In this document: one piece after another, positions 280-54,971 of the stretch
Layout of the letters: each line of letters begins with the position of its first letter
Position numbering within the stretch: position 1 is the stretch's first letter
DNA from: Eledone cirrhosa
Lineage: Eukaryota
DNA: 64,000 nucleotides
Assembly: GCA_964016885.1 (NCBI GenBank)
Contig: OZ024748.1
Location: forward strand, 43,028,001-43,092,000
Direction of reading: 5' to 3'
The notes under the pieces: generated by a model
The model's input: the letters and a program-made list of their open reading frames with translations, nothing else
Told to the model about the DNA's origin: nothing
Databases searched by the model: none
Made by a program: the position numbers and the translations under genes

Positions 280-315
280 CAACACACCATAGACATATTG
301 GTAGCAGTGGTGTTT
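280..315 (+). CDS. CLASP: Candidate short CLASP exon (36 nt)
   Basis: tttcatgcccctcatccag|...|gtaagt; open in phase 1: xTHHRHIGSSGV; no homology support. Confidence 0.5.
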
Positions 316-6681: not shown

Positions 6682-6711
6682 AAGGTGGTGGCGAAGGTGA
6701 TGATACGGAAG
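6682..6711 (+). CDS. CLASP: Candidate CLASP microexon (30 nt; 27 nt via NAGNAG)
   Basis: tttgccatttgtgctccttctgccag|aaggtggtggcgaaggtgatgatacggaag|gtaagg; phase 1-1 xGGGEGDDTE; purine-rich island in an AT-rich intron. Confidence 0.6.
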
Positions 6712-11109: not shown

Positions 11110-11713
11110 GTCAGGTCACCAGTTGGTGCTACTGGTAACATGTATCCCAGTACAACCTGTTTCATGGTCGGGTCGTTGGCGACTAAACTGGCAACCCCAC
11201 CAAGGTTTCTTGGTGAGGAGGGTGACTTTGGACATCCTGCAGGACTAAAAACAAAACCTGTCAAAGGGCAAAGGAGCTCTTAAGAGTCAATGGCCATCCA
11301 AAATCACTGGGAGAGACGACCCCTTAGCCTTTGTCAAGGCAGAATTCTAGGAGAAGGAAAACTCTGATATAACACCTGCAACCCTGATGGTATCCAATGA
11401 TGTTGACTTGTTCTACTTTTTGGTAAATATCATCTTGGTTAAGAGAGTGGGACTGGCTCTGTGCAATGCCTTTGCTCACTATAAAAGCTTCATGGCACAG
11501 GCATTGCTTTATATCTGGAGATCTCTGCACTTGTCACATGGTACCATGGGCCCAGGACTATGTGTCAATAATTGTCACAAGTGTAGTGTTTGTACCAGAG
11601 TTATCAAGTCGCTGGCTGGACTCAAAAGTCACACTCATTCAGCGCATCGGTAGGGGTTCTCCTACATGGATATAAAGTAGTGGCCGTACTCGAAAACGAG
11701 TTGGCAGCCGCCA
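11110..11713 (+). mobile_element. Non-autonomous/internally deleted RTE-type retroelement
   Basis: Structured 5' part; 3' part encodes [22 protein letters not shown] (C2H2-like LINE C-terminus); second copy at 51700-52111. Confidence 0.55.
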
Positions 11714-11989
11714 TGTATGTATGTATGTATGTATGTATGTATAGATATGTATGTATGTATGTATAGATATGTATGTATATATAGATATGTATGTATGTAT
11801 ATATAGATATATGTATGTATGTATATATAGATATATGTATGTATGTATATATAGATATATGTATGTATGTATATATAGATATATATATGTATATATATAT
11901 GTATATGTATATATATATATGTATGTATATATATATGTATATGTATGTATATGTATATATATATATATATATGTATATGTATGTATATG

Positions 11990-12020
<31 letters not shown>

Positions 12021-12143
12021 GTATATATATATGTATATGTATATATATATGTATATATATATGTATATATATATGTATATGTATATATGTATATGTATAT
12101 GTATATATGTATATGTATATATGCATATGTATATATATATATG

Positions 12144-12175
<32 letters not shown>

Positions 12176-12225
12176 TGTATATGTATATATGTATATATAT
12201 ATATATATATGTATATGTATATATG

Positions 12226-12279
<54 letters not shown>

Positions 12280-12562
12280 TGTATATGTATATATGTATAT
12301 ATATATATGTATATGTATATATGCATATGTATATATATATATATATATGTATATGTATATATGTATATATATATATGTATATGTATATATGCATATGTAT
12401 ATATATATATATATGTATATGTATATATGTATATATGCATATGTATATATATGTATATGTATATATGCATGTGTATATGTATGTATATGTGTATATGTAT
12501 GTATATATGTATATGTATGTATATATGTATATATGTATATATATATATATGTATATATGTAT

Positions 12563-12594
<32 letters not shown>

Positions 12595-13736
12595 GTATAT
12601 ATGTATATGTATATATGTATATATATGTGTATGAATGTATATATATATATATATGTGTATCTATGTGTGTATATATGTGTGTGTGTGTATATGTATATAG
12701 ATATATATATGTGTGTGTGTGTGTATATGTATATAGATATATATATATGTATATGTATGTATGTATATATAGATATATGTATGTATGTATATATAGATAA
12801 TTGTATGTATGTATGTATGTATGTATATATATGTATAGATAGATAGATATATATAGATAGATATATATATGTATATATAGATAGATAGATATATCTATAT
12901 ATATATATATATATGTATATATAGATATATGTGTATGTATGTATATATAGATATGTATATGTATATATATATAGATATATATATGTATATGTATGTATAT
13001 ATATATATATATGTATATGTATGTATATATATATATATGTATATGTATGTATATATATATATATGTATATGTATGTATATATATATATATATGTATATGT
13101 ATGTATATATATATGTATATGTATGTATATATATATATATATGTATATGTATGTATATATATATATATATGTATATGTATGTATATATATATATATATGT
13201 ATATGTATGTATATATATATGTATATGTATGTATATATATATATATATGTATATGTATGTATATATATATATATGTATATGTATGTATATATATATATAT
13301 GTATATGTATGTATATATAGATATATGTATATGTATGTATATATAGATATATGTATATGTATGTATATATAGATATATGTATGTATATATAGATATATGT
13401 ATATGTATATATAGATATATGTATATGTATGTATATATATATATATGTATATGTATGTATATATAGATATATGTATATGTATGTATATATAGATATATGT
13501 ATATGTATGTATATATAGATATATGTATATATATATATGTATATGTATATGTATGTATATGTATATATATGTATATGTATGTATATATAGATATATGTAT
13601 GTATATATAGATATATGTATATATATATAGATATATGTATATATATATATATGTATATATATATGTGTATATATGTATAAAGATATGTATATATAGATAT
13701 ATGTATATATATATGTGTATATATGTATAAAGATAT

Positions 13737-13774
<38 letters not shown>

Positions 13775-13888
13775 GTGTATATATATAGGTGTATATATGT
13801 ATATAGATATGTGTATATATATATGTATATATATGTATATATATATATATATATATGTGTATATAAATATGTATGTGTATATATATAT
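11714..13888. repeat. ~2.2-kb compound (TA)/(TATG)/(TAGA) microsatellite
   Basis: Direct inspection. Confidence 0.95.
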
Positions 13889-14234
13889 CTAATGTGCTAC
13901 TGGATCTAATTTTACTCTCCGCGGTCGTCTGTGTTATACTCTTACTAATGTGCAGTATCTAATCCCTGTTTGAGCATTAAACATTGATGTTATTTTCTAT
14001 TGTTCTCAAATGCTGCTTGTCGATCAAAATGTGTAGCATGTGTCTTGGAATCCTGCTCAGCTGTTCTCCTAGTCTGGTTTGATCTGGTCTGATCTGGTTT
14101 GGTCATCTGTCTGACTGGTCACCACAACAGTTTCCTTACTTTAGCTCTTCTCTATAACCTCTTTCCTTTTTGCCATGACTTTGCTACCTGTGTGTACACG
14201 GCCCCCTGTGTAGACTAGTGAGTTTTATTTCCAG

Positions 14235-18605: not shown

Positions 18606-18653
18606 GTCGTGAAAGGCGATTAAGTGGTAGTAGACTTTCGACACTACAAAAGC
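18606..18653 (+). CDS. CLASP: CLASP short coding exon
   Basis: aacag|...|gtgagt; 48 nt, phase 1-1; GRERRLSGSRLSTLQK. Confidence 0.8.
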
Positions 18654-18923
18654 GTGAGTTTCTTTAAAATCTTTTTCTAAAAATCAATTGCAATGAAATA
18701 TCTTATTGAACCAGTTATAATATATTTCTTGGCTTATATTCAAGTATATATTGGTAGTTTTGTTTGTATGATTGGTAATTTGTAATTACTGAAGTATGGA
18801 GTGATTATAGAACAGATCAATTTAATTGATATTCAGTGATCAATAAGTTTTATAGATCTATCGTCTGCTGACATAAGTATATTAGGAATATTTATGAAAA
18901 CCTCCCAACTTGTTTCTTTCCAG

Positions 18924-18991
18924 CCAATGTGATAACCCAAAGAGTGCTCAGACCTGGTTCTGATTCAGAAGCAGCTATAGCAGATGCTCTG
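18924..18991 (+). CDS. CLASP: CLASP coding exon
   Basis: ttccag|...|gtgagt; PNVITQRVLRPGSDSEAAIADAL (cf. RVL...EAAVADAL); ends phase 0. Confidence 0.93.
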
Positions 18992-21358
18992 GTGAGTTAT
19001 TATTATTTAACTAATATTAACTTATTTCTCTATAATATTGTTGTTAATGTATTAGAATAAAACAGGGATTAACTTTATATTTTGTACAGAAATTAATATT
19101 AAATTGCTAGTTTTAAACTTAAATTGTTAGTCATTAATCTCTTGTTTAACTAACATCAACTTTTTAAATAAGAAATTTTTCTTTGTTTTTTCTGTATAAT
19201 ATTATTATAATGTATGAGAATAAAACAGGGATTAACTTTATATTTTGAACAGAAATTGATATTAAATTCCAAGTTTTAAAACTAAATTGTTAGAATGTTT
19301 CTGTGAATGTTTGAGAGTAGATAACTGCTCTGAAGAAAATATTACCATATAATATGTATTTTTATCTCAATTTTCAGTTTGTTCTCTGGAAAATTATATC
19401 TCTTCTCTCTCTCTACTAAAAGTGTAAAACAAGATCTTTCTTTACATTCTCAGTAATTCCAGTTGTATATACTTGAATAAAAGCCAACACTAGTTTTACA
19501 CAGGTTAATAGATGGAGTTAACCTACAAGAAGAAAACATCCCTTACATCACAACCAAATTTCTTATATAAGCTGGACCATGTATATTTACCAGTATAAGT
19601 CACTATAATTCATTAGGCCTCTTCCTGCCATCACACACACACCATTTAAGAGAACATTTGGGTTTTTGGTACACTGTACTTTGGACTGTACCCTGTATTT
19701 CAACCTCCTAAAAGGTAGCATCTGTATAATGGGCAATCCCAGAAGTCTGGCCAAAAAATCTGGTTTTAAAAAAATAATCTGACTTTTATACAAGTATATA
19801 CAGTGTTGACTACATCTGAATTATCTACAATGTCTCTACAATGATGATGATCTCTACATTAAACCTTTTTTTTTTTTCAATCTGCCTTTCCTTAGGAACT
19901 GTAGAGAATATTAAAATATTTTGTTTTTGTTAGTCTAAAATAGTCTCTTTTTTTTTAAACTGATAAACTCTCTTGCTTATTTTCCAAAGTGTCGCTTCCA
20001 GGAGGCTTCATAAATCTTCTCTTTATAACTTTCAGTAAATGTAACTTGAAGAACAATCTTGAAGTTTTGTGATATTTTTGTAATGTTTCTTTTGAATTCT
20101 TTTAAATCTATTTTCCCTTTAAAGGTAATTTCTTCAAGAGTATTATCTTCATACTCATATCTCTATTTTCTATAATGTATTTAAATATCTTGCTTATTTT
20201 CAAAGTATGTTTTGCTTTTAGGCAAAGCTACCACAACACATAATTTTAACATATAAATATTTATTCCTATAATAAATTATTATTCAACGATGAGTAAGAA
20301 AAGAAAATTCTTCAGATGCTAATTTTTTTTTTATAATTCTTACAGAAAGGGAGACTTTTATTCATAAAGTTGGCTTAAAAACCATTAATGATTACATAAA
20401 TATGAAAAAGAAAGATAAAAGCAAAATTAAATAATGAGAAAAGCGGGGAAGAGGTAAAGAAGGGCAGATCTGGGAAAGTAGAGGAAAGGACTATGAATAA
20501 ATCCGAAATATAAGGTCTTGAGTTGTTGACACAGCTTTCTGGCACACAGCGGATGTAAGGTTTGATGAGGTTCAATTCCTGCAGCCATCTACTTCTGTTG
20601 TAAGAGGTTATAATCTGTATTTATTTTCAACTGTTTTATAGTTAAAATTATGGATTGTCAGGCTTTTGCATGAAAGTAAAAACATACCGTATATATTCCA
20701 ATATAAGCTGATGAATAGCACGTGACCCAAACATTTATGGTAAAAGGGAAGGTTGGCTTATATATACTTATACTTGTGTTCACCCAGGGTGGGTTGTGCC
20801 AGCTCCATCAAAGGAATTCACGGTGTAAGTTCATTTCAATGGAGTTTCTTCAGGCCATTGGTTTCACAAGCGTTGCTCAGCTGCAAGTATATCCACTTTA
20901 GGATAGTGCAATGCTTAGATTGCATTGGTTATAGCACCGATCTTTCACTCTCACACTCAACCCAATTTGATGAAGCCAGTGTCGCGATGGGGGATGCATG
21001 GGAGGATATTTGGCTGGCAGAGGTGATAAACACAACCTATTTGAGCCATTTTGTAGGCCAGCAGAAGCTCACTCCACTGCCCAGCTCAGGTATATCAACC
21101 CTCAACATTTTGGCTTATATATGCCAACTAAACAATGTGTTTATTAGCTGTCTCAGTTTATAAATGGGGTTTGAGTTTCTCAGACATGAAATGAGGGGTT
21201 GGCTTATATTTGGGTTTATACAGTACTTTGAAATTCCAGTCTTACTATTTGGTTCATAAAACATTTTGTCTTATTTGTTTCTTCCAAACAAATACTACCA
21301 ACTGTAGTTTAAATGGTATTCTATAGACCCTTTCCTAAAACTGCTGGTTTTATTTCAG

Positions 21359-21388
21359 GGAGATATAACACAGCGTGGCCTCAGCCAG
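21359..21388 (+). CDS. CLASP: Candidate CLASP microexon GDITQRGLSQ (30 nt)
   Basis: ctgctggttttatttcag|...cag|gtgaga; phase 0-0, lies between the ADAL and QSSLRKRYE exons. Confidence 0.7.
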
Positions 21389-22383
21389 GTGAGATATGTT
21401 AATCATATGTTTGCTGTGCAGAAAGTTTTCAGCATGAAGTTTTTGTCAAATGTTTTTCAACTAAACAAATATCTGATTTTTAATCCATGAAAAACCTCTA
21501 GATTAAATCAGTTTACTAATTTATTTGGCATTTGTGTTTGTCTTGTCAGCTTTCGATTTGTTTTCAAATCTGTTTGTTTAATTTTTAATAATTTTCTTTT
21601 AACTATTTTGATTTTTGTTTACTGTATACATGTCCCACACTGTAAATGCGGTTGGTGTTAGAAAGGGCATCCAGCTGTAAAAATCCAGCCAAATTTACAT
21701 TCCTGTCAGAGCAAGGTACAGTGTGGCCAAACCTGGCCTGACTTCTCTCTTGATGTGGACGGCTCGTCTGATCCATACAAGCATGAAAAAATGGACGTTA
21801 AACGCTGATGATGATGATGATGATGATGGTTGAGGTGGGGAAATGACGGAATCATTAGATTGTTGGATATAATGCCTTGGCATTTGTGCCAGATCTCTGC
21901 ACTTGTTCAAATCCCACCAAGATCAACCTTACCTTTCATCCTTTCGGGGTTGATAAATAGGGTAGAAATCCAGGGGCTGTGGATTGACAATCAGGATACT
22001 TTGTGGTATCTGATCTGGCTCTGTAATCCAAGTTCAAATCCTGCCTCTTCTGCCAGGAATTCTGACTAACAGATCCTATCAGTGATGGAAAGACCAATGG
22101 AAATATAGTTCCCTTGCTCTGAACTGATAATTGGCTTCTTCCCTAATTTGTTTTATTGTTGTTTAACTAGATGTAGTAAAAATTACTAACTCACCAAACA
22201 TTTTGTTTTATATTAGTTTGTGTGACCAAATCTACAAAAGGGTTTAATGAAAAACTATTCCTTTAAGGATATGGCTTCATATAAAACCATTTTGGCCTGA
22301 TTTGTAATTATTTTGGTTTGTTCCATGTTTGATTAAATATTCTGATTTATTTCTGCATTAATAGTGCTTGTTATAGAAGTTAT

Positions 22384-22420
<37 letters not shown>

Positions 22421-23325
22421 GTGCTTGCTATGAAAGTTAATAATTATAGTAGATATATGTATAGTGCTTGCTGTGGAAGTCAATACTCATATTTTATGTA
22501 TATTTGTATATTTAATTTAAATTCTTTCTCCAAACATGTCGGTGTAATTTCTGTATCTAATGAAGAGGTTATATGGTAGAAACACCATATAACCTTATCT
22601 CACAACACTACACCATCTACTACAGTCTACCAACACCACCTATTCCATTCTCACAACACTGCACAGCCTACTGCAGTCTCACAACACCACACCACACAAC
22701 CTACTGCAGTCTACCATCACTACACCACATCATACAAGCTCTTGTAGTCTCACAACACACCACAGCATCTGATGCAGTCTCCCAACACCATACCACACAA
22801 CCTACTGTAGTTTACCACCACCACACCACCACCACACTACACCATCTGCTACATTAAAAACAGAAATCACACCCTCATGTTTTGTGTTTAATATAAACAT
22901 TACATACACAACACTCCATGTTTCACCTGTGCCTCCTTACTCTCATTCCACCCTCCTTTGTGTATAATTTTATCTTGCCCTGTTGCATGTATTGCTTATT
23001 AACCCTCCACTTAAAGCCTCCCCACGTTGCATGTTGCTTCTACTCTAGTTTCATAGAATGTTACCTTCGCTGCTTGCATGCATGTTATGCACATGTTCTG
23101 TCAAATTGTCATAATGCACACATCATGAATCAACCCAGACAGACAGGCAGAAATACGCGCACACACACACACAGACGACACCATTCAGTTAATAAGAAAT
23201 ATTATTTATTTCAAGTATTCAAGACCAGTATTAATCCAGTATGTTCCATGTATTAATTTCTCTTATATTTTACTTTATCTGTTGTATTTAATGTAATAAC
23301 CTAAATCCTTTATATCTCCCAACAG

Positions 23326-23436
23326 CAATCATCTCTTCGTAAAAGGTATGAGAGCTATGATTCGGACGATGCTGGTAGTGAAACTTCAAGTCTTTGCTCA
23401 GAGCGCTCCTTCAGTTCTTATGGTCGTACATCAGAG
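23326..23436 (+). CDS. CLASP: CLASP coding exon
   Basis: caacag|...|gtgagt; 111 nt; QSSLRKRYESYDSDDAGSETSSLCSERSFSSYGRTSE (cf. RRRYE...SDDDANSDASSVCSERS). Confidence 0.95.
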
Positions 23437-25863: not shown

Positions 25864-25905
25864 AGAGGAGATTCACAAAGCAAAGATTCTAGTGCAAATG
25901 AACAG
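25864..25905 (+). CDS. CLASP: Candidate alternative CLASP exon RGDSQSKDSSANEQ (42 nt)
   Basis: TACTAAC at 25823-25829, pyrimidine tract with TGC, first downstream AG (gag|), CAG|gtaac donor; phase 0-0, open. Confidence 0.5.
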
Positions 25906-29904: not shown

Positions 29905-31170
29905 GGACAGTGGCTCCCTGTTGACAGATCTATTGTCTCTATCAAGGACAGTAGGTCCCTATTGGTAGATCTATCATCTATATCAAGGACAATGTGTCTC
30001 TGTTACTAGATCTATTGTCTATATGAAAGACAGTAGGTCCCTGTTGGTAGATCTATTGTCTCTATCAAGAACAGTAGGTCCCTGTTGGTAGATCTATTGT
30101 TTCTATCAAGGACAGTAGGTCCCTGTTGGTAGATCTATTGTTTCTATCAAGGACAGTAGGTCCCTGTTGGTAGATCTATTGTTTCTATCAAGGACAGTAG
30201 GTCCCTGTTGGTAGATCTATTGTTTCTATCAAGGACTGTAGGTCCCTATTGGTAGATCTATTTTCTCTATATGACACAGTGGTCCCTGTTGTTAGTCTCT
30301 ATTGTCTCTATCAAGGACAGTAGGTCCCTATTGGTAGATCTATTGTCTCTATCAAGGACAGTAGGTCCCTATTGGTAGATCTATTGTCTCTATATGAAAG
30401 ACAGTGGGTCCCTGTTGTTAGATCTGTTGTCTATATCAAGGACAGTAGGTCCCTATTGTTAGATCTATTGTCTCTATATGACACACAGTAGGTCTTTATT
30501 GGTAGATCTATTGTCTCTATATGACAGACAGTGGGTCCCTGTTGGTAGATCTATTGTTTCTATCAAGGACAGTAGGTCCCTGTTGGTAGATCTATTGTTT
30601 CTATCAAGGACAGTAGGTCCCTGTTGGTAGATCTATTGTTTCTATCAAGGACTGTAGGTCCCTATTGGTAGATCTATTTTCTCTATATGACACAGTGGTC
30701 CCTGTTGTTAGATCTATTGTCTCTATCAAGGACAGTAGGTCCCTATTGGTAGATCTATTGTCTCTATCAAGGACAGTAGGTCCCTATTGGTAGATCTATT
30801 GTCTCTATATGAAAGACAGTGGGTCCCTGTTGTTAGATCTGTTGTCTATATCAAGGACAGTAGGTCCCTATTGTTAGATCTATTGTCTCTATATGACACA
30901 CAGTAGGTCTTTATTGGTAGATCTATTGTCTCTATATGACAGACAGTGGGTCCCTGTTGGTAGATCTATTGTCTCTATCAAGGACAGTAGGTCTCTGTTG
31001 GTAGATCTATTGTCTATATCAAGGACAGTGGTCCCTGTTGTTAGATCTATTGTCTCTATATGACACAGTGGTCCCTATTGGTAGATCTATTGTCTCTATA
31101 TGACAGACAGTGGGTCCCTGTTGTTAGATCTATTGTCTCTACAAGGACTGTAGGTCCCTGTTGCTAGATC
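29905..31170. repeat. ~41-bp minisatellite, ~30 copies
   Basis: ggacagtaggtccctgttggtagatctattgtctctatcaa. Confidence 0.92.
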
Positions 31171-33938: not shown

Positions 33939-34017
33939 GGAATGTTTTCCTTGTAGCCTGCAATTTAGTATAGCTACAAGGTTTTGTATTGACCAAACAC
34001 AATCACCAAATCTTAAG
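33939..34017 (+). CDS. CLASP: CLASP coding exon (TOG3)
   Basis: tttcag|...|gtaccg; (R)ECFPCSLQFSIATRFCIDQTQSPNLK (cf. DQTQTPNLK). Confidence 0.95.
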
Positions 34018-34232
34018 GTACCGATATATATATATATATATATTTCTAATTATTGTCTCTATATCATAATTTCTGGTTTCTCTCTTCAATATGTTTGTGT
34101 GTGTGCGTGTGTGCATATGTATGTGTGTGTGTGTGTTTATATATATATTTCCTATTACCCACTCTACTACCCTAAGTATTGAGTACTTTGGTGCGTTATG
34201 GTCCACCTGGTTCCTTACCACATTTCCTTTGT

Positions 34233-45673: not shown

Positions 45674-45920
45674 GTCTGGTGAACCCGATGAATACGAAAC
45701 TGAAAACATGAATCCTCAGGATATTTATAATTCTATTAAGAAAACTTCGGCCGATATTCAAAACCTTAGCTACAACAGTAAATTAGACCATTTTGATGAT
45801 GTGAAGAAAAAGAAAGAATTCACCTCACAAGATAGTGGTATACAAGATCTTCGGAATGATAGTCCTGATGTTTCTGATCCACGTAAAACATTTTATAACC
45901 CCTCACATTACCAAGATGAG
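45674..45920 (+). CDS. CLASP: CLASP coding exon
   Basis: ctgtag|...|gtgatt; (R)SGEPDEYETENMNPQDIYNSIKKTSADIQNLSYNSKLD...YNPSHYQDE (cf. YDTENLNSEEIYSSL; YNPY). Confidence 0.93.
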
Positions 45921-48413: not shown

Positions 48414-48455
48414 CTCCCTGGAAGTCACTGCTGGGCATACCGGTCACCGAAGGTG
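48414..48455 (+). CDS. CLASP: Candidate alternative CLASP exon APWKSLLGIPVTEG (42 nt)
   Basis: gtgccctcctattttaactag|...|gtgaga; phase 1-1, open; GC-rich island. Confidence 0.6.
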
Positions 48456-48979: not shown

Positions 48980-49988
48980 ATATATATATCAGTAAAATAG
49001 TTCCCTCCCAATTTTAAGAGCAATTTCTTAGATTTTGTTTTACTTCTCCAAATTGGAAACATTTACATATTTAAATAGATTTTAAATTTATTTTAAATGA
49101 CATCAAAACAAGATAACGCATTTATGATATCCTTTATGAAATACATTATCTATGATTTTCGAAGAATTTGGAAAGATTTCAAAATGTTTCCCAAAGAAAT
49201 TTGCAGCATATAGTCACAGCCCTTTAGATTCTCAGTTCAAAACCTAACAAGGGTAGTTTTGCCTTTCATCCTTATGGGGTCAATAAAATAAAGCACCAGT
49301 AATACACTGGGATTAATTTAATCAACTTCTCCCTTCCCTGCTAATTGCTGGCCTTGTGTCAAACATAGAAACAATTATTTAGACATTATAAAATTTAATT
49401 TGATTTCTCAATCTTTGCTAAGCCTTTCAAATTGAAAGAATCCAATAACTTGTTTGTGCTATTCAGGTGTCTTATAAATCTAACAAGTTTTATTTTTTCT
49501 TCATCTTCCAAGTTCAGTCACAGTGCACATATTCCAGTAATGTTTTTATATTTTCTTGAAAAATCATTCACACCACAGAAAAGTTACTTATTATTAAAAT
49601 TAGATTGTAATAAAATAACAAAGATTAGGTGCCAGCTTCAGTGTGTGGGTGAGTGGTGATAGCATTGTTGTCACATCACTGTGTGAGTGCCTGCAATGTT
49701 TTGTGGGTACCTGCATCACTGTGTGGGTGGAGTACATCGCTGTGTAAGTGTATCCATCGGTGTGTGGGTGTTGGCAGCATTGGTGTGTGGGTACATCGCT
49801 GTGTAGGTGTATACATCAGTGTGTGGGTGTTGGCATCACTTTGTGATGAACAAGTTTGCTTTGTAACCACATTCTCTTTGGTTCTTTCCCATTGCACGAC
49901 ACCTTAGGCAAGTGTCTTCAACTCTAACCTTGGGCTGACCATGCTTTGTCAGGCAATTTGGTAGATGGAAACTATATCAAGTCCATCA

Positions 49989-50039
<51 letters not shown>

Positions 50040-50042
50040 GTG

Positions 50043-50073
<31 letters not shown>

Positions 50074-50092
50074 GTATATATATATGTGTATA

Positions 50093-50145
<53 letters not shown>

Positions 50146-50230
50146 ATATATATGTATATATATGTATATATATATATATGTATATGTATATATATATGTA
50201 TATATATATGTATATATATATGTATATATG

Positions 50231-50265
<35 letters not shown>

Positions 50266-50280
50266 GTATATATATATGTG

Positions 50281-50313
<33 letters not shown>

Positions 50314-50316
50314 GTG

Positions 50317-50349
<33 letters not shown>

Positions 50350-50458
50350 GTGTATATATATATATATATGTATATATATATGTGTATATATATATATGTG
50401 TATATATGTATATATATATGTGTATATATATATATATACACACATATATATGTATATA

Positions 50459-50502
<44 letters not shown>

Positions 50503-50788
50503 TATGTATATATATATGTGTATATATATATGTGTATATATATATATATATATACACACATATATATGTATATATATATATGTGTATATATATATATATA
50601 TATACACACATATATATGTATATATATATGTGTGTATATATATATATATATACACACATATGTATGTATATATATGTATGTGTATGTATATATATGTATG
50701 TGTATATATATATATGTATGTGTATGTATATATATGTATGTGTATGTATATATATGTATGTGTATGTATATATATATATGTGTATATA

Positions 50789-51120
50789 CGATATTAAATA
50801 AATGGAAACTATATTTATAAAACCATATTTATTTCATTATATATATTTCAGGGATATCATATTAAAAATACGGTATGCCTTCATCAGACAAAATACAATA
50901 TAAACAGTCTTATAAATAGATAGATTTGACATACCTTACACTTCAACTTCCATTTAAAAAGTTGATTTGGTAGTGAAATCACTACCAAATCAACTTTGGT
51001 TTTATAAATATAGTTTCCATTTATTTAATATCGTAAATATACTCCAAATACTTGTTGAGTGCTTCTATATCAGTTATAAATATTTACTCGTTGTAACCCA
51101 ACAAATTAAATAAAACTTTG
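50789..51120. mobile_element. Palindromic Penelope-like element, same family as 27838-28235
   Basis: Shares the cgatatta..aatggaaactatatttataaaacca arms and the 3' tail; embedded in long (TA/TG)n. Confidence 0.6.
50830..50895 (-). ncRNA. Hammerhead motif, second family, diverged copy
   Basis: Reverse complement: tattttgt-CTGATGA-agg...cct-GAAA-tatata-TA-atgaaata; the stem II base covaries (agg/cct vs aag/ctt). Confidence 0.7.
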
Positions 51121-51204
51121 CATATGTGTATATATATATATACGTGTATATATATATATATGTGTATATATATATATATATATATGTGTATATATATATA
51201 TATA

Positions 51205-51299
<95 letters not shown>

Positions 51300-51590
51300 A
51301 TATATGTATATATATGTATATATATGTGTATATATATGTATATATATGTATATATATGTGTATATATATATGTGTGTATATATATATATGTGTGTATATA
51401 TATATATGTGTGTATATATGTATATATATGTATATATATGTGTATATATATATGTGTGTATATATATATATGTGTGTATATATATATATGTGTGTATATA
51501 TATATATGTGTATATATATATGTGTGTATATATATATATGTGTATATGTATATATGTGTATATATATATATATATATTTGTGTATATATA

Positions 51591-51689
<99 letters not shown>

Positions 51690-51699
51690 GTGTGTATAT

Positions 51700-52111
51700 C
51701 GGGAGAGATGACCCCTTAGCCTTTTGTCAAGGCAGAATTCTAGGAGAAGGAAAACTCTGATATAACACCTGCAACCCTGATGGTATCCAATGATGTTGAC
51801 TTGTTCTTCTTTTTGGTAAATATCATCTTGGTTAAGAGAGTGGGACTGGCTTTGTGCAGTGCCTTTGCTCACTATAAAAGCTTCACGGCACAGGCATTGC
51901 TTTATATCTGGAGATCTCTCTGCACTTGTCATCACATGGTACCATGGGCCCAGCACTATGTGTCAATAATTGTCACAAGTGTAGTGTTTGTACCAGAGTT
52001 TTCAAGTCGCTGGTTGGACTAAAAAGTCACACTCGTTCAGCGCATCGGTAGGGGTTCTCCTACATGGATATAAGGTAGTGGCCATACTCGAAAACGAGTT
52101 GGCAGCCACCA
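51700..52111 (+). mobile_element. 5'-truncated copy of the 11110-11713 element
   Basis: Closely matches 11309-11713; inserted in (TA/TG)n. Confidence 0.7.
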
Positions 52112-53249: not shown

Positions 53250-53667
53250 TCATCATCATCATCATCATCAACGTTTAACGTCCGTGTTCCACGCTTGCAT
53301 GGGTTTGGACGGGGGTAGTCCCACTTGAGGCAAGAGTGGTTGTCTTGCTCGCATAGGACTGTCTGGCAGGTTTTCTACAGTTGGATGCCCTTCCTAACAC
53401 CAACCACATTTACAGTGTGGGTCTGGGAGGTTTTTACCGTGTTACCTACACGGCCACATTACAGCGTGGACTGTGTGTTTTTTTGTCGTGACACCTACAC
53501 GATCTCGTTTGTTTCGGCCTCGATGGCGCGGCACCAACATAACTTTACATAGAACGGGGTGGTGTGGATGGGGTGGGGGTGGTGGTGGTGGGACGGGGTG
53601 TATTTTGTTAGAGATGCCTACTGGCTGGAGTAGGTTTTACTATATATTTAGGTAAGGCGGGTCTTCG
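53250..53667 (-). mobile_element. Second, shorter copy of the same RTE 3' end
   Basis: Matches 52298-52823 from the (CAT)n tail through KTRLT*. Confidence 0.8.
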
Positions 53668-54971
53668 TGTATATATATATATGTGTATATATATATATAT
53701 TTACATATATACATATATATATATGTGTATATATATATATGTACATATATATATGTATATATATATATGTGTATATATATATACATGTACATATATACAT
53801 ATATATATGTACATATATATATACATATATATATGTATATATATATGTATGTATATATGTATGTATATATGTATGTATATATGTATGTATATATGTATAT
53901 ATATGTATGTATATATGTATATATATGTATGTATATATGTATATATATGTATGTATATATGTATATATATGTATGTATATATATGTATATATATGTATAT
54001 ATGTATATATATATGTATGTATATATGTATATATGTATATGTATGTATATATGTATATATGTATGTATATATGTATATATGTATATGTATGTATATATGT
54101 ATATATATGTATGTATGTATATATGTATATATATGTATGTATATATGTATATATATGTATGTATATATGTATATATGTATATATATATGTATGTATATAT
54201 ATATATATAATGTATATATATATAATGTATATCTCAATGCCAAGAACTGTGGAGGTGAGGGAAGCTACTATGTGACCATATGACAACTGTGTTTACTTCA
54301 GAAAAACAACAAGAGTACACATAATGATTCTTATTTGGCTGGCAATGTCTCCTGTGTTTATACACACAGCTCCACGTCTGTATATTTATGTGCACCTGTG
54401 CATTCATGTTTGTGTATGCATGTGCATCAGTGTATGTGTATGTCAGTGTCACCCAGTTTCTACAACCAAAGTTGGTCTTTCAATCTCTTTCAGTCTACAA
54501 CCTATCTGAAAACAAAATATATCTTTTCAGATTCTTTGAACCACATTCTTCTTCATTTTGGTTTTTGAGCCATGCAATAATTCTCTTTTTAAACAGAACT
54601 GTTGTTATATGAAAAAACAAAGCTGATATTTTCCTTATTTTTCTCAACAGCTCAGTATCTTTGTCTTCATTCTCATCATCATCATCATGTCTTCACTTCA
54701 CCAATATGGTGTCCACAACAGTAGTTGCACTAGCTTTTTTCCTCTTTGCTTCATGTTATAAACTAAAGTTTTAAAACAAAAAACAGGGCCCAAATTTTGT
54801 GACCTGCTTTCACGTATCAGTTGTAGCTTGGGGAATGTGTGAACGCCACAGCTTCCATTTCCTTTATCATAAACCAATGTTAACTAGTCATAGATATTTC
54901 TGGTTATGGAAAGTTGAACAATTTCTCTCTCTCTTGTTTAGTTTGGCTTTGTTTTCACCAGATTTACTAAA

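Follow-up and report, generated by a model that had tools for sequence, protein, structure and literature searches.

The CLASP locus and its 30-nt exon

On its + strand the window, a 64,000-nt stretch of the Eledone cirrhosa genome, covers the larger part of the 3' two-thirds of an octopod gene for CLASP, a microtubule-stabilising protein. In all, 24 window segments align in order with O. sinensis CLASP isoform X1, and exon 45675-45920 is 100% identical with CLASP of O. vulgaris, O. sinensis, and Argonauta. Pfam CLASP_N and PDB CLASP matches were obtained on protein P0130, and the window gene shows the TOG1-TOG2-linker-TOG3-CLIP-ID architecture and the orthology of the CLASP family. The exon studied here has a single match in the genome, at G000:C8. 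It and its surroundings are as follows, where joints are those of a contig from run X1.

18924..18991, +, upstream exon ending ...AAIADAL, phase 0 (sequence, X1 joints, mapping)
21342..21344, +, UGC motif at -17, a candidate SRRM/eMIC element by predicted function
21345..21358, +, T-rich acceptor adjoining the AG, score 6.1 (splice matrix)
21359..21388, +, 30-nt cassette exon of CLASP, GDITQRGLSQ, phase 0/0 (letters, X1 contig joints, and orthologous peptides of O. sinensis, O. vulgaris, and Sepia pharaonis)
21389..21394, +, donor CAG/gtgaga, score 8.0 (splice matrix)
23326..23436, +, downstream exon QSSLRKRYESYDSDDAGSETSS..., phase 0 (sequence, X1 joints, mapping)

An earlier note on this DNA had described a 30-nt phase-0 exon with strong splice sites, placed right after ...AAIADAL and preceded at ~17 nt by TGC. 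Coordinates, length, phase, and peptide all match this description, the upstream exon ends as stated, and the TGC begins 17 nt upstream of the acceptor's exon edge. The exon is bordered by ttatttcag/GGAGAT...AGCCAG/gtgaga, the downstream exon begins QSSLRK, and the UGC is located inside a 30-nt zone free of AG. Among 128 candidates in the intron (in-frame, stop-free AG..GT stretches of 3-51 nt) it scored best, at 14.1 vs 3.0 for the next independent one, and its acceptor (6.1) beats both flanking acceptors (4.9 and 4.4); these scores come from a crude, hand-set, untrained matrix of generic frequencies. Ranked over the whole window, it was second among seven candidates, the first being an exon used by O. 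sinensis models. At 30 nt it exceeds the strict microexon range of 3-27 nt and belongs to the 28-51 nt class.

Several further features of the gene were seen. A 48-nt exon without an upstream UGC (18606-18653) is present in 35/35 aligned cephalopod sequences, is spliced in run X1, and serves as a short constitutive control. O. sinensis models insert SFISQQ ahead of the downstream exon; window positions 23308-23325 read ...ISQQ in frame but hold no AG at the corresponding site, and SFISQQ looks like an alternative acceptor absent in E. cirrhosa. The six bases past the donor at 34017 (34018-34023) would encode an extra PK, a dipeptide that is optional in models of O. sinensis, O. bimaculoides, and Sepia and that likely reflects tandem donors. 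The introns contain very long AT/AC microsatellite tracts (11700-13900, 49950-51720, and 53650-54230) and several minisatellites, such as one at 29905-31170 with a 41-nt period, all of them ordinary for octopod DNA.

Splicing of the exon in E. cirrhosa

Four runs of one study contain the CLASP gene. In run X1, whose library type and tissue are not on record, one contig (3059 nt, depth 57.8) joins 18653 to 18924, 18991 to 21359, and 21388 to 23326, all at GT..AG. Between the two flanking exons the contig holds exactly the letters of the exon (record 280 to 309) and nothing else. Each joint has a short side of 28 letters, under the 31-letter rule, but both flanking exons stand in that one record. 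The two junctions by which the earlier note had proposed to check the exon are thus both used, in one run. Runs X2-X4 cover introns, and none of the three joints named above is present in them. The skip joint, 18991 to 23326, was absent from the 15 X1 joints listed (34 more are unlisted), in a single run whose contigs drop minor variants. Skipping was seen in the models of O. sinensis, O. bimaculoides, and Argonauta only. The exon is real, expressed, and alternatively used, with skipping known from the models of other species.

Conservation within cephalopods

The earlier note held that its reading would fall if both junction reads and conservation in other cephalopods were lacking; the exon was found in both octopods and cuttlefish. 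Counting sequences, which are isoforms rather than independent events, 15/18 O. sinensis models include the exon as GDITQRGLGQ and 3/18 skip it, the single O. vulgaris model (1/1) includes it, and it is missing from the models of O. bimaculoides (8/8) and Argonauta (1/1). Among 16 decapodiform sequences, two of them fragments, all 14 that span the junction carry the cuttlefish form GDITQRGFSQ; five of these 14 are named Sepia pharaonis and nine are known only from Logan, the latter being called decapodiform by clustering with, or close resemblance to, Sepia pharaonis sequences. Nine of the ten residues are kept in O. sinensis, where position 9 is G for S, and nine in cuttlefish, where position 8 is F for L. 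Since octopods and decapodiforms both carry it, the exon is older than their split, which dates to roughly 270-300 My.

The exon itself is therefore not new to public gene models: the orthologous exon is both included and skipped in O. sinensis RefSeq isoforms (XP_036366131.1 etc.) and is already within the Sepia pharaonis CLASP1_2 models (CAE1286835.1 etc.). We found no publication on this CLASP exon, a weak negative from searches of a limited library, and supplementary tables or VastDB may include it; recurrence of exons at one position is a described class.

Other inserts at the same junction

The junction at which the exon is placed holds optional inserts in several lineages. Across 92 amphioxus sequences, ANYS (12 nt) and YDT(L/V)CHPQ (24 nt) occur in every possible combination: 42 with both, 25 and 11 with a single one, and 14 with neither. 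Scallops carry SP(R/K)GEHPK (24 nt) in 23/36 sequences, and decapodiform sequences carry an extra LTHSKFHLQ (27 nt) and PSKTKQ (18 nt). In the window's intron we found nothing that corresponds to LTHSKFHLQ or PSKTKQ, to the scallop insert, or to either amphioxus insert. The amphioxus and scallop inserts share HP(Q/K) with p=0.007, as one of 28 pairs and hence about 0.2 when corrected. The last residue of the 24-nt amphioxus insert and of the scallop insert is Q/K, and these two could be alternative acceptors rather than cassettes. Because the amphioxus, scallop, and cuttlefish inserts differ at one junction, it looks, from these sequences, like a slot for repeated gains.

Outgroups were compared as protein models rather than genomes, and no Nautilus sequence was among them. 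Deep conservation, one of two options in the earlier note, was not supported by comparison with other molluscs: a GD-type insert was present in 0/205 junction-spanning protein sequences from non-cephalopod molluscs (213 examined, eight not spanning), and 182/205 had neither the GD-type nor the scallop insert. Isoform sets from Lingula (nine sequences), Priapulus (six), and the sea cucumber Apostichopus (13, of which nine span the junction) showed no alternative form there. The insert is thus absent from the protein models of the intermediate lineages, a type of annotation in which short or neural exons are frequently overlooked.

One junction further on, following ...GRTSE / ...GRTLE, the protein likewise holds unrelated optional inserts, in amphioxus (P0442-P0459, P0475-P0485, and P0493-P0494), bivalves including scallops (P0040-P0053), limpets, and coleoids (window 25864); this junction is a second recurrent slot.

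Comparison with the vertebrate CLASP microexon

In vertebrates a 24-nt exon of CLASP2/1 has been given as LLGDIRTK / LLGDSRSK, and the earlier note placed it at this same junction. The position held at the protein level, in vertebrate proteins rather than introns, where teleost CLASP1 reads EAAVADAL/LLGDSRNK/RKPMRR. The inserts that we retrieved read LLGDSRNK, LLGDTRNK (arowana), and LLGDMRSK (smelt CLASP2). The vertebrate insert is skipped in alpaca CLASP2 and in sturgeon. Like the octopus exon, it lies between ADAL and the basic patch. A region search seeded with protein P0006 yielded no vertebrate sequence.

The primers printed for a mouse Clasp2 microexon in PMC8378409, which go with an RT-PCR panel of neuronal microexons, encode EEAVAD and SACSER, and this puts them on either side of the junction. 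Three 24-nt exons of mouse Clasp1 (MmuEX0011507) and Clasp2 (MmuEX0011514 and MmuEX0011532) are classed as eMIC-dependent in Table S2 of PMC8797185, and a 24-nt exon of mouse Clasp2 is reported to require its UGC in a minigene (10.64898/2026.05.02.722430). The octopus exon resembles the mouse Clasp1/Clasp2 exons in being short, frame-preserving, and optional, with UGC before the acceptor. It differs in length (30 vs 24 nt), in the register of GD, in the lack of convincing similarity, and, for the coleoid exon as a whole, in being broadly included in sequences.

The GD(I) shared with vertebrates had been taken in the earlier note as suggesting deep conservation or convergence. Only GD is common, because the third residue varies in vertebrates (S, T, and M), and it stands at positions 3-4 of the vertebrate inserts vs 1-2 of the octopus exon. 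Against a null of random peptides of linker composition, the octopus peptide gave p=0.129 and 0.123 with two teleost CLASP1 inserts and p=0.051 with the smelt CLASP2 insert. An exact G-D-I triple would score 16, with p=0.0175 under the same null and a choice from several paralogues. Sequence similarity is therefore near chance (p=0.05-0.13), and the lengths differ (30 vs 24 nt). The shared motif is not supported as a sign of deep homology, and the note's second option, convergence, is favoured by this near-chance similarity and by the lack of GD-type inserts in other molluscs.

Upstream UGC motifs and possible eMIC regulation

Four sibling optional exons of the gene in the window also carry an upstream UGC.

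280..315, +, 36-nt optional exon, UGC at -14
6682..6711, +, 30-nt optional exon, UGC at -24, -15, and -6
25864..25905, +, 42-nt optional exon, UGC at -27 and -17
48414..48455, +, 42-nt optional exon, UGC at -20

Exon 6682-6711 supplies the GDDTE peptide in O. sinensis X12 and X15, and both 42-nt siblings are also present in decapodiform sequences. Run X1 gave no cover on sibling 25864-25905; its contig match runs one base beyond 23436, a weak hint that fits a skip to 31237 and that we set aside.

UGC at -25..-8 was present in 5/5 short optional CLASP exons (30-42 nt) vs 0/21 others (Fisher p=1.5e-5), in a range that was chosen after four of the exons had been seen and that the fifth (280-315) fitted afterwards. 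In the wider range -30..-3 the counts were 5/5 vs 4/21 (p=0.002). TGC occurs by chance in 17% of 2782 windows of 23 nt, and 35/90 strong-scoring AG sites have it at -25..-3, so that a single upstream UGC is weak evidence for the eMIC. The exon at 21359-21388 combines a UGC near its 3' splice site (at -17) with preservation of the frame. Typical eMIC targets differ, with a weak acceptor and a UCUC-rich tract, whereas the octopus acceptor is strong on our crude matrix and no UCUC lies in the 100 nt upstream. A 42-nt sibling is found in 2/14 decapodiform sequences vs 14/14 for exon 21359-21388, and the two 42-nt siblings may be the better neural/eMIC candidates.

In zebrafish, 60% of neural exons of 28-51 nt are reported to respond to srrm3/4 loss (PMC12626424), and in mammals strong core sites are reported to raise both basal inclusion and SRRM4 sensitivity (10.1101/2024.09.17.613571). 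The mammalian effect would therefore fit an octopus exon that is broadly included and eMIC-boosted. Strong core splice sites may give broad inclusion, the upstream UGC would likely let Srrm234/eMIC raise inclusion further in neurons, and the exon would then act as a rheostat more than as an on/off switch. A role of the eMIC in controlling exon 21359-21388 is plausible. Strict neural specificity is doubtful, a strict neural switch being disfavoured because decapodiform inclusion is 14/14 and the strong acceptor has no UCUC.

The regulator itself is likely present in the genome, as judged from an SRRM_C-like exon. This exon, SARKRPVPYHR... at G000:C22:28146430 (-) (L044:1359-1532), has as its sole Pfam match the end of SRRM_C (positions 56-67), at a strength below the cut-off (E=0.013); it is likely the last exon of Srrm234, the one that encodes the eMIC. 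A cwf21 exon split by an intron (L003) lies 1.24 Mb upstream on the same contig and strand as the putative eMIC exon. Scanning 200 kb next to each of two cwf21 matches for motifs turned up no eMIC exon. At a further locus (L002, G000:C26:19508238-19509310) a frame of 356 aa runs without interruption and encodes a complete cwf21 domain plus an SRRM2-like N-terminus; this is a second, intron-poor Srrm2/Cwc21-like copy.

Independent gain or common ancestry

We favour, with a probability of about 0.7, the reading that the octopus exon and the vertebrate microexon at this junction are independent gains. The exon would have arisen in the coleoid (or cephalopod) lineage, and the phase-0 junction within a low-complexity linker may tolerate and repeatedly recruit short in-frame exons. 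That the exon is a cassette of coleoid (or cephalopod) independent origin and is also regulated as proposed above is, taken jointly, moderately probable. Published surveys point in a similar direction. One preprint, which covers 20 bilaterians with O. bimaculoides among them, reports that in the median 3% of neural exons are conserved in outgroup species and that most others are convergent, and it terms recurrence at the same position 'type I convergence' (Mantica et al., bioRxiv 10.64898/2026.09.05.749416); its main text makes no mention of CLASP. Of four eMIC exons at the same position in fly and mouse, convergence was favoured for three (PMC8797185); the fly CLASP gene name chb is not among the listed Table S2 matches from that source, the first of which stand in its GO table. 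The type I convergent exons of spg and syd resemble the CLASP case in that different short exons occupy an equivalent intron position in cytoskeletal or trafficking orthologues, and unc-13 and unc-104 (PMC8797185) likewise have short exons at an equivalent intron position. The type I definition includes neural specificity, which in its strict form is doubtful for the CLASP exon.

The exons might instead descend from one microexon of the bilaterian ancestor, kept with diverged sequence and shifted splice sites by vertebrates, amphioxus, scallops, and coleoids, with many lineages having lost it or leaving it unannotated. The junction is identical in these four lineages and three of them share a 24-nt length (eight residues), yet deriving the octopus exon from such a form requires moving the acceptor by 6 nt and the donor as well. 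GD is common to octopus and vertebrates and HP(Q/K) to amphioxus and scallops, and ten residues of disordered linker can lose all similarity over such a distance; the octopus and vertebrate inserts nevertheless show none that is convincing, and the tandem inserts of amphioxus and cuttlefish show that extra gains did occur here. UGC lies upstream of both the octopus exon and the mouse Clasp2 24-nt exon, while the published prior for conservation is low (10.64898/2026.09.05.749416). Many mollusc losses would be needed to leave so many sequences with neither insert, albeit in protein models prone to missing short or neural exons. We regard descent of this kind as unlikely. Equally improbable is its stronger form, in which the junction would be one of very few microexons from the bilaterian ancestor's eMIC programme with the sequence turned over; if such an ancestral slot were true, position and length, not residues, would carry the function.

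A different question is whether the exon, of whatever origin, is regulated at all. A near-constitutive coleoid exon outside eMIC or neural control, with an incidental UGC and skipping at a low level or in particular species, would account for the uniform decapodiform inclusion (the 42-nt sibling being so much rarer), the strong splice sites, and the frequency of TGC by chance. It fits less well with the partition of UGC between the short optional exons and the others and with the models that skip the exon, seen for O. sinensis, O. bimaculoides, and Argonauta. We consider it a serious contender, though a less probable one; it concerns how the exon is regulated and nothing else, and it can hold together with independent gain. 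That 21359-21388 is a splice-like motif arisen by chance, or a cryptic exon lacking function, is extremely improbable: short length and the eight O. bimaculoides models without the exon would suit such a reading, whereas splicing in X1, the residues kept in O. sinensis and cuttlefish, and the top score in the intron do not. The cryptic-exon reading is refuted by the X1 splicing together with the O. sinensis models.

Probable consequences for the CLASP protein

The insert corresponds to residues 771-780 of P0130, between the PDB matches of TOG2 (280-539) and TOG3 (831-1059), and its inclusion adds ten residues to the S/R-rich TOG2-TOG3 linker. An SxIP-like motif (SAIP) lies about 60 residues before it, and directly after it comes the conserved RKRY...SDDxxSETSS stretch, a basic patch with an acidic serine-rich part. 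The insert would build no domain; it may tune linker length and charge spacing, and hence the binding of microtubules or partners. In mouse, one Clasp1 microexon, given as exon 'A', reportedly dampens FAK-ERK signalling during neurogenesis, and FAK phosphorylation rises when it is skipped (PMC12868881).

With independent gain as the preferred reading, optional inserts at the junction in at least four bilaterian lineages make it a compact test of ancestry vs convergence. The CLASP junction also tests whether unrelated inserts do the same job, and the five UGC-bearing short CLASP exons are ready candidates with which to test the eMIC code in a cephalopod.
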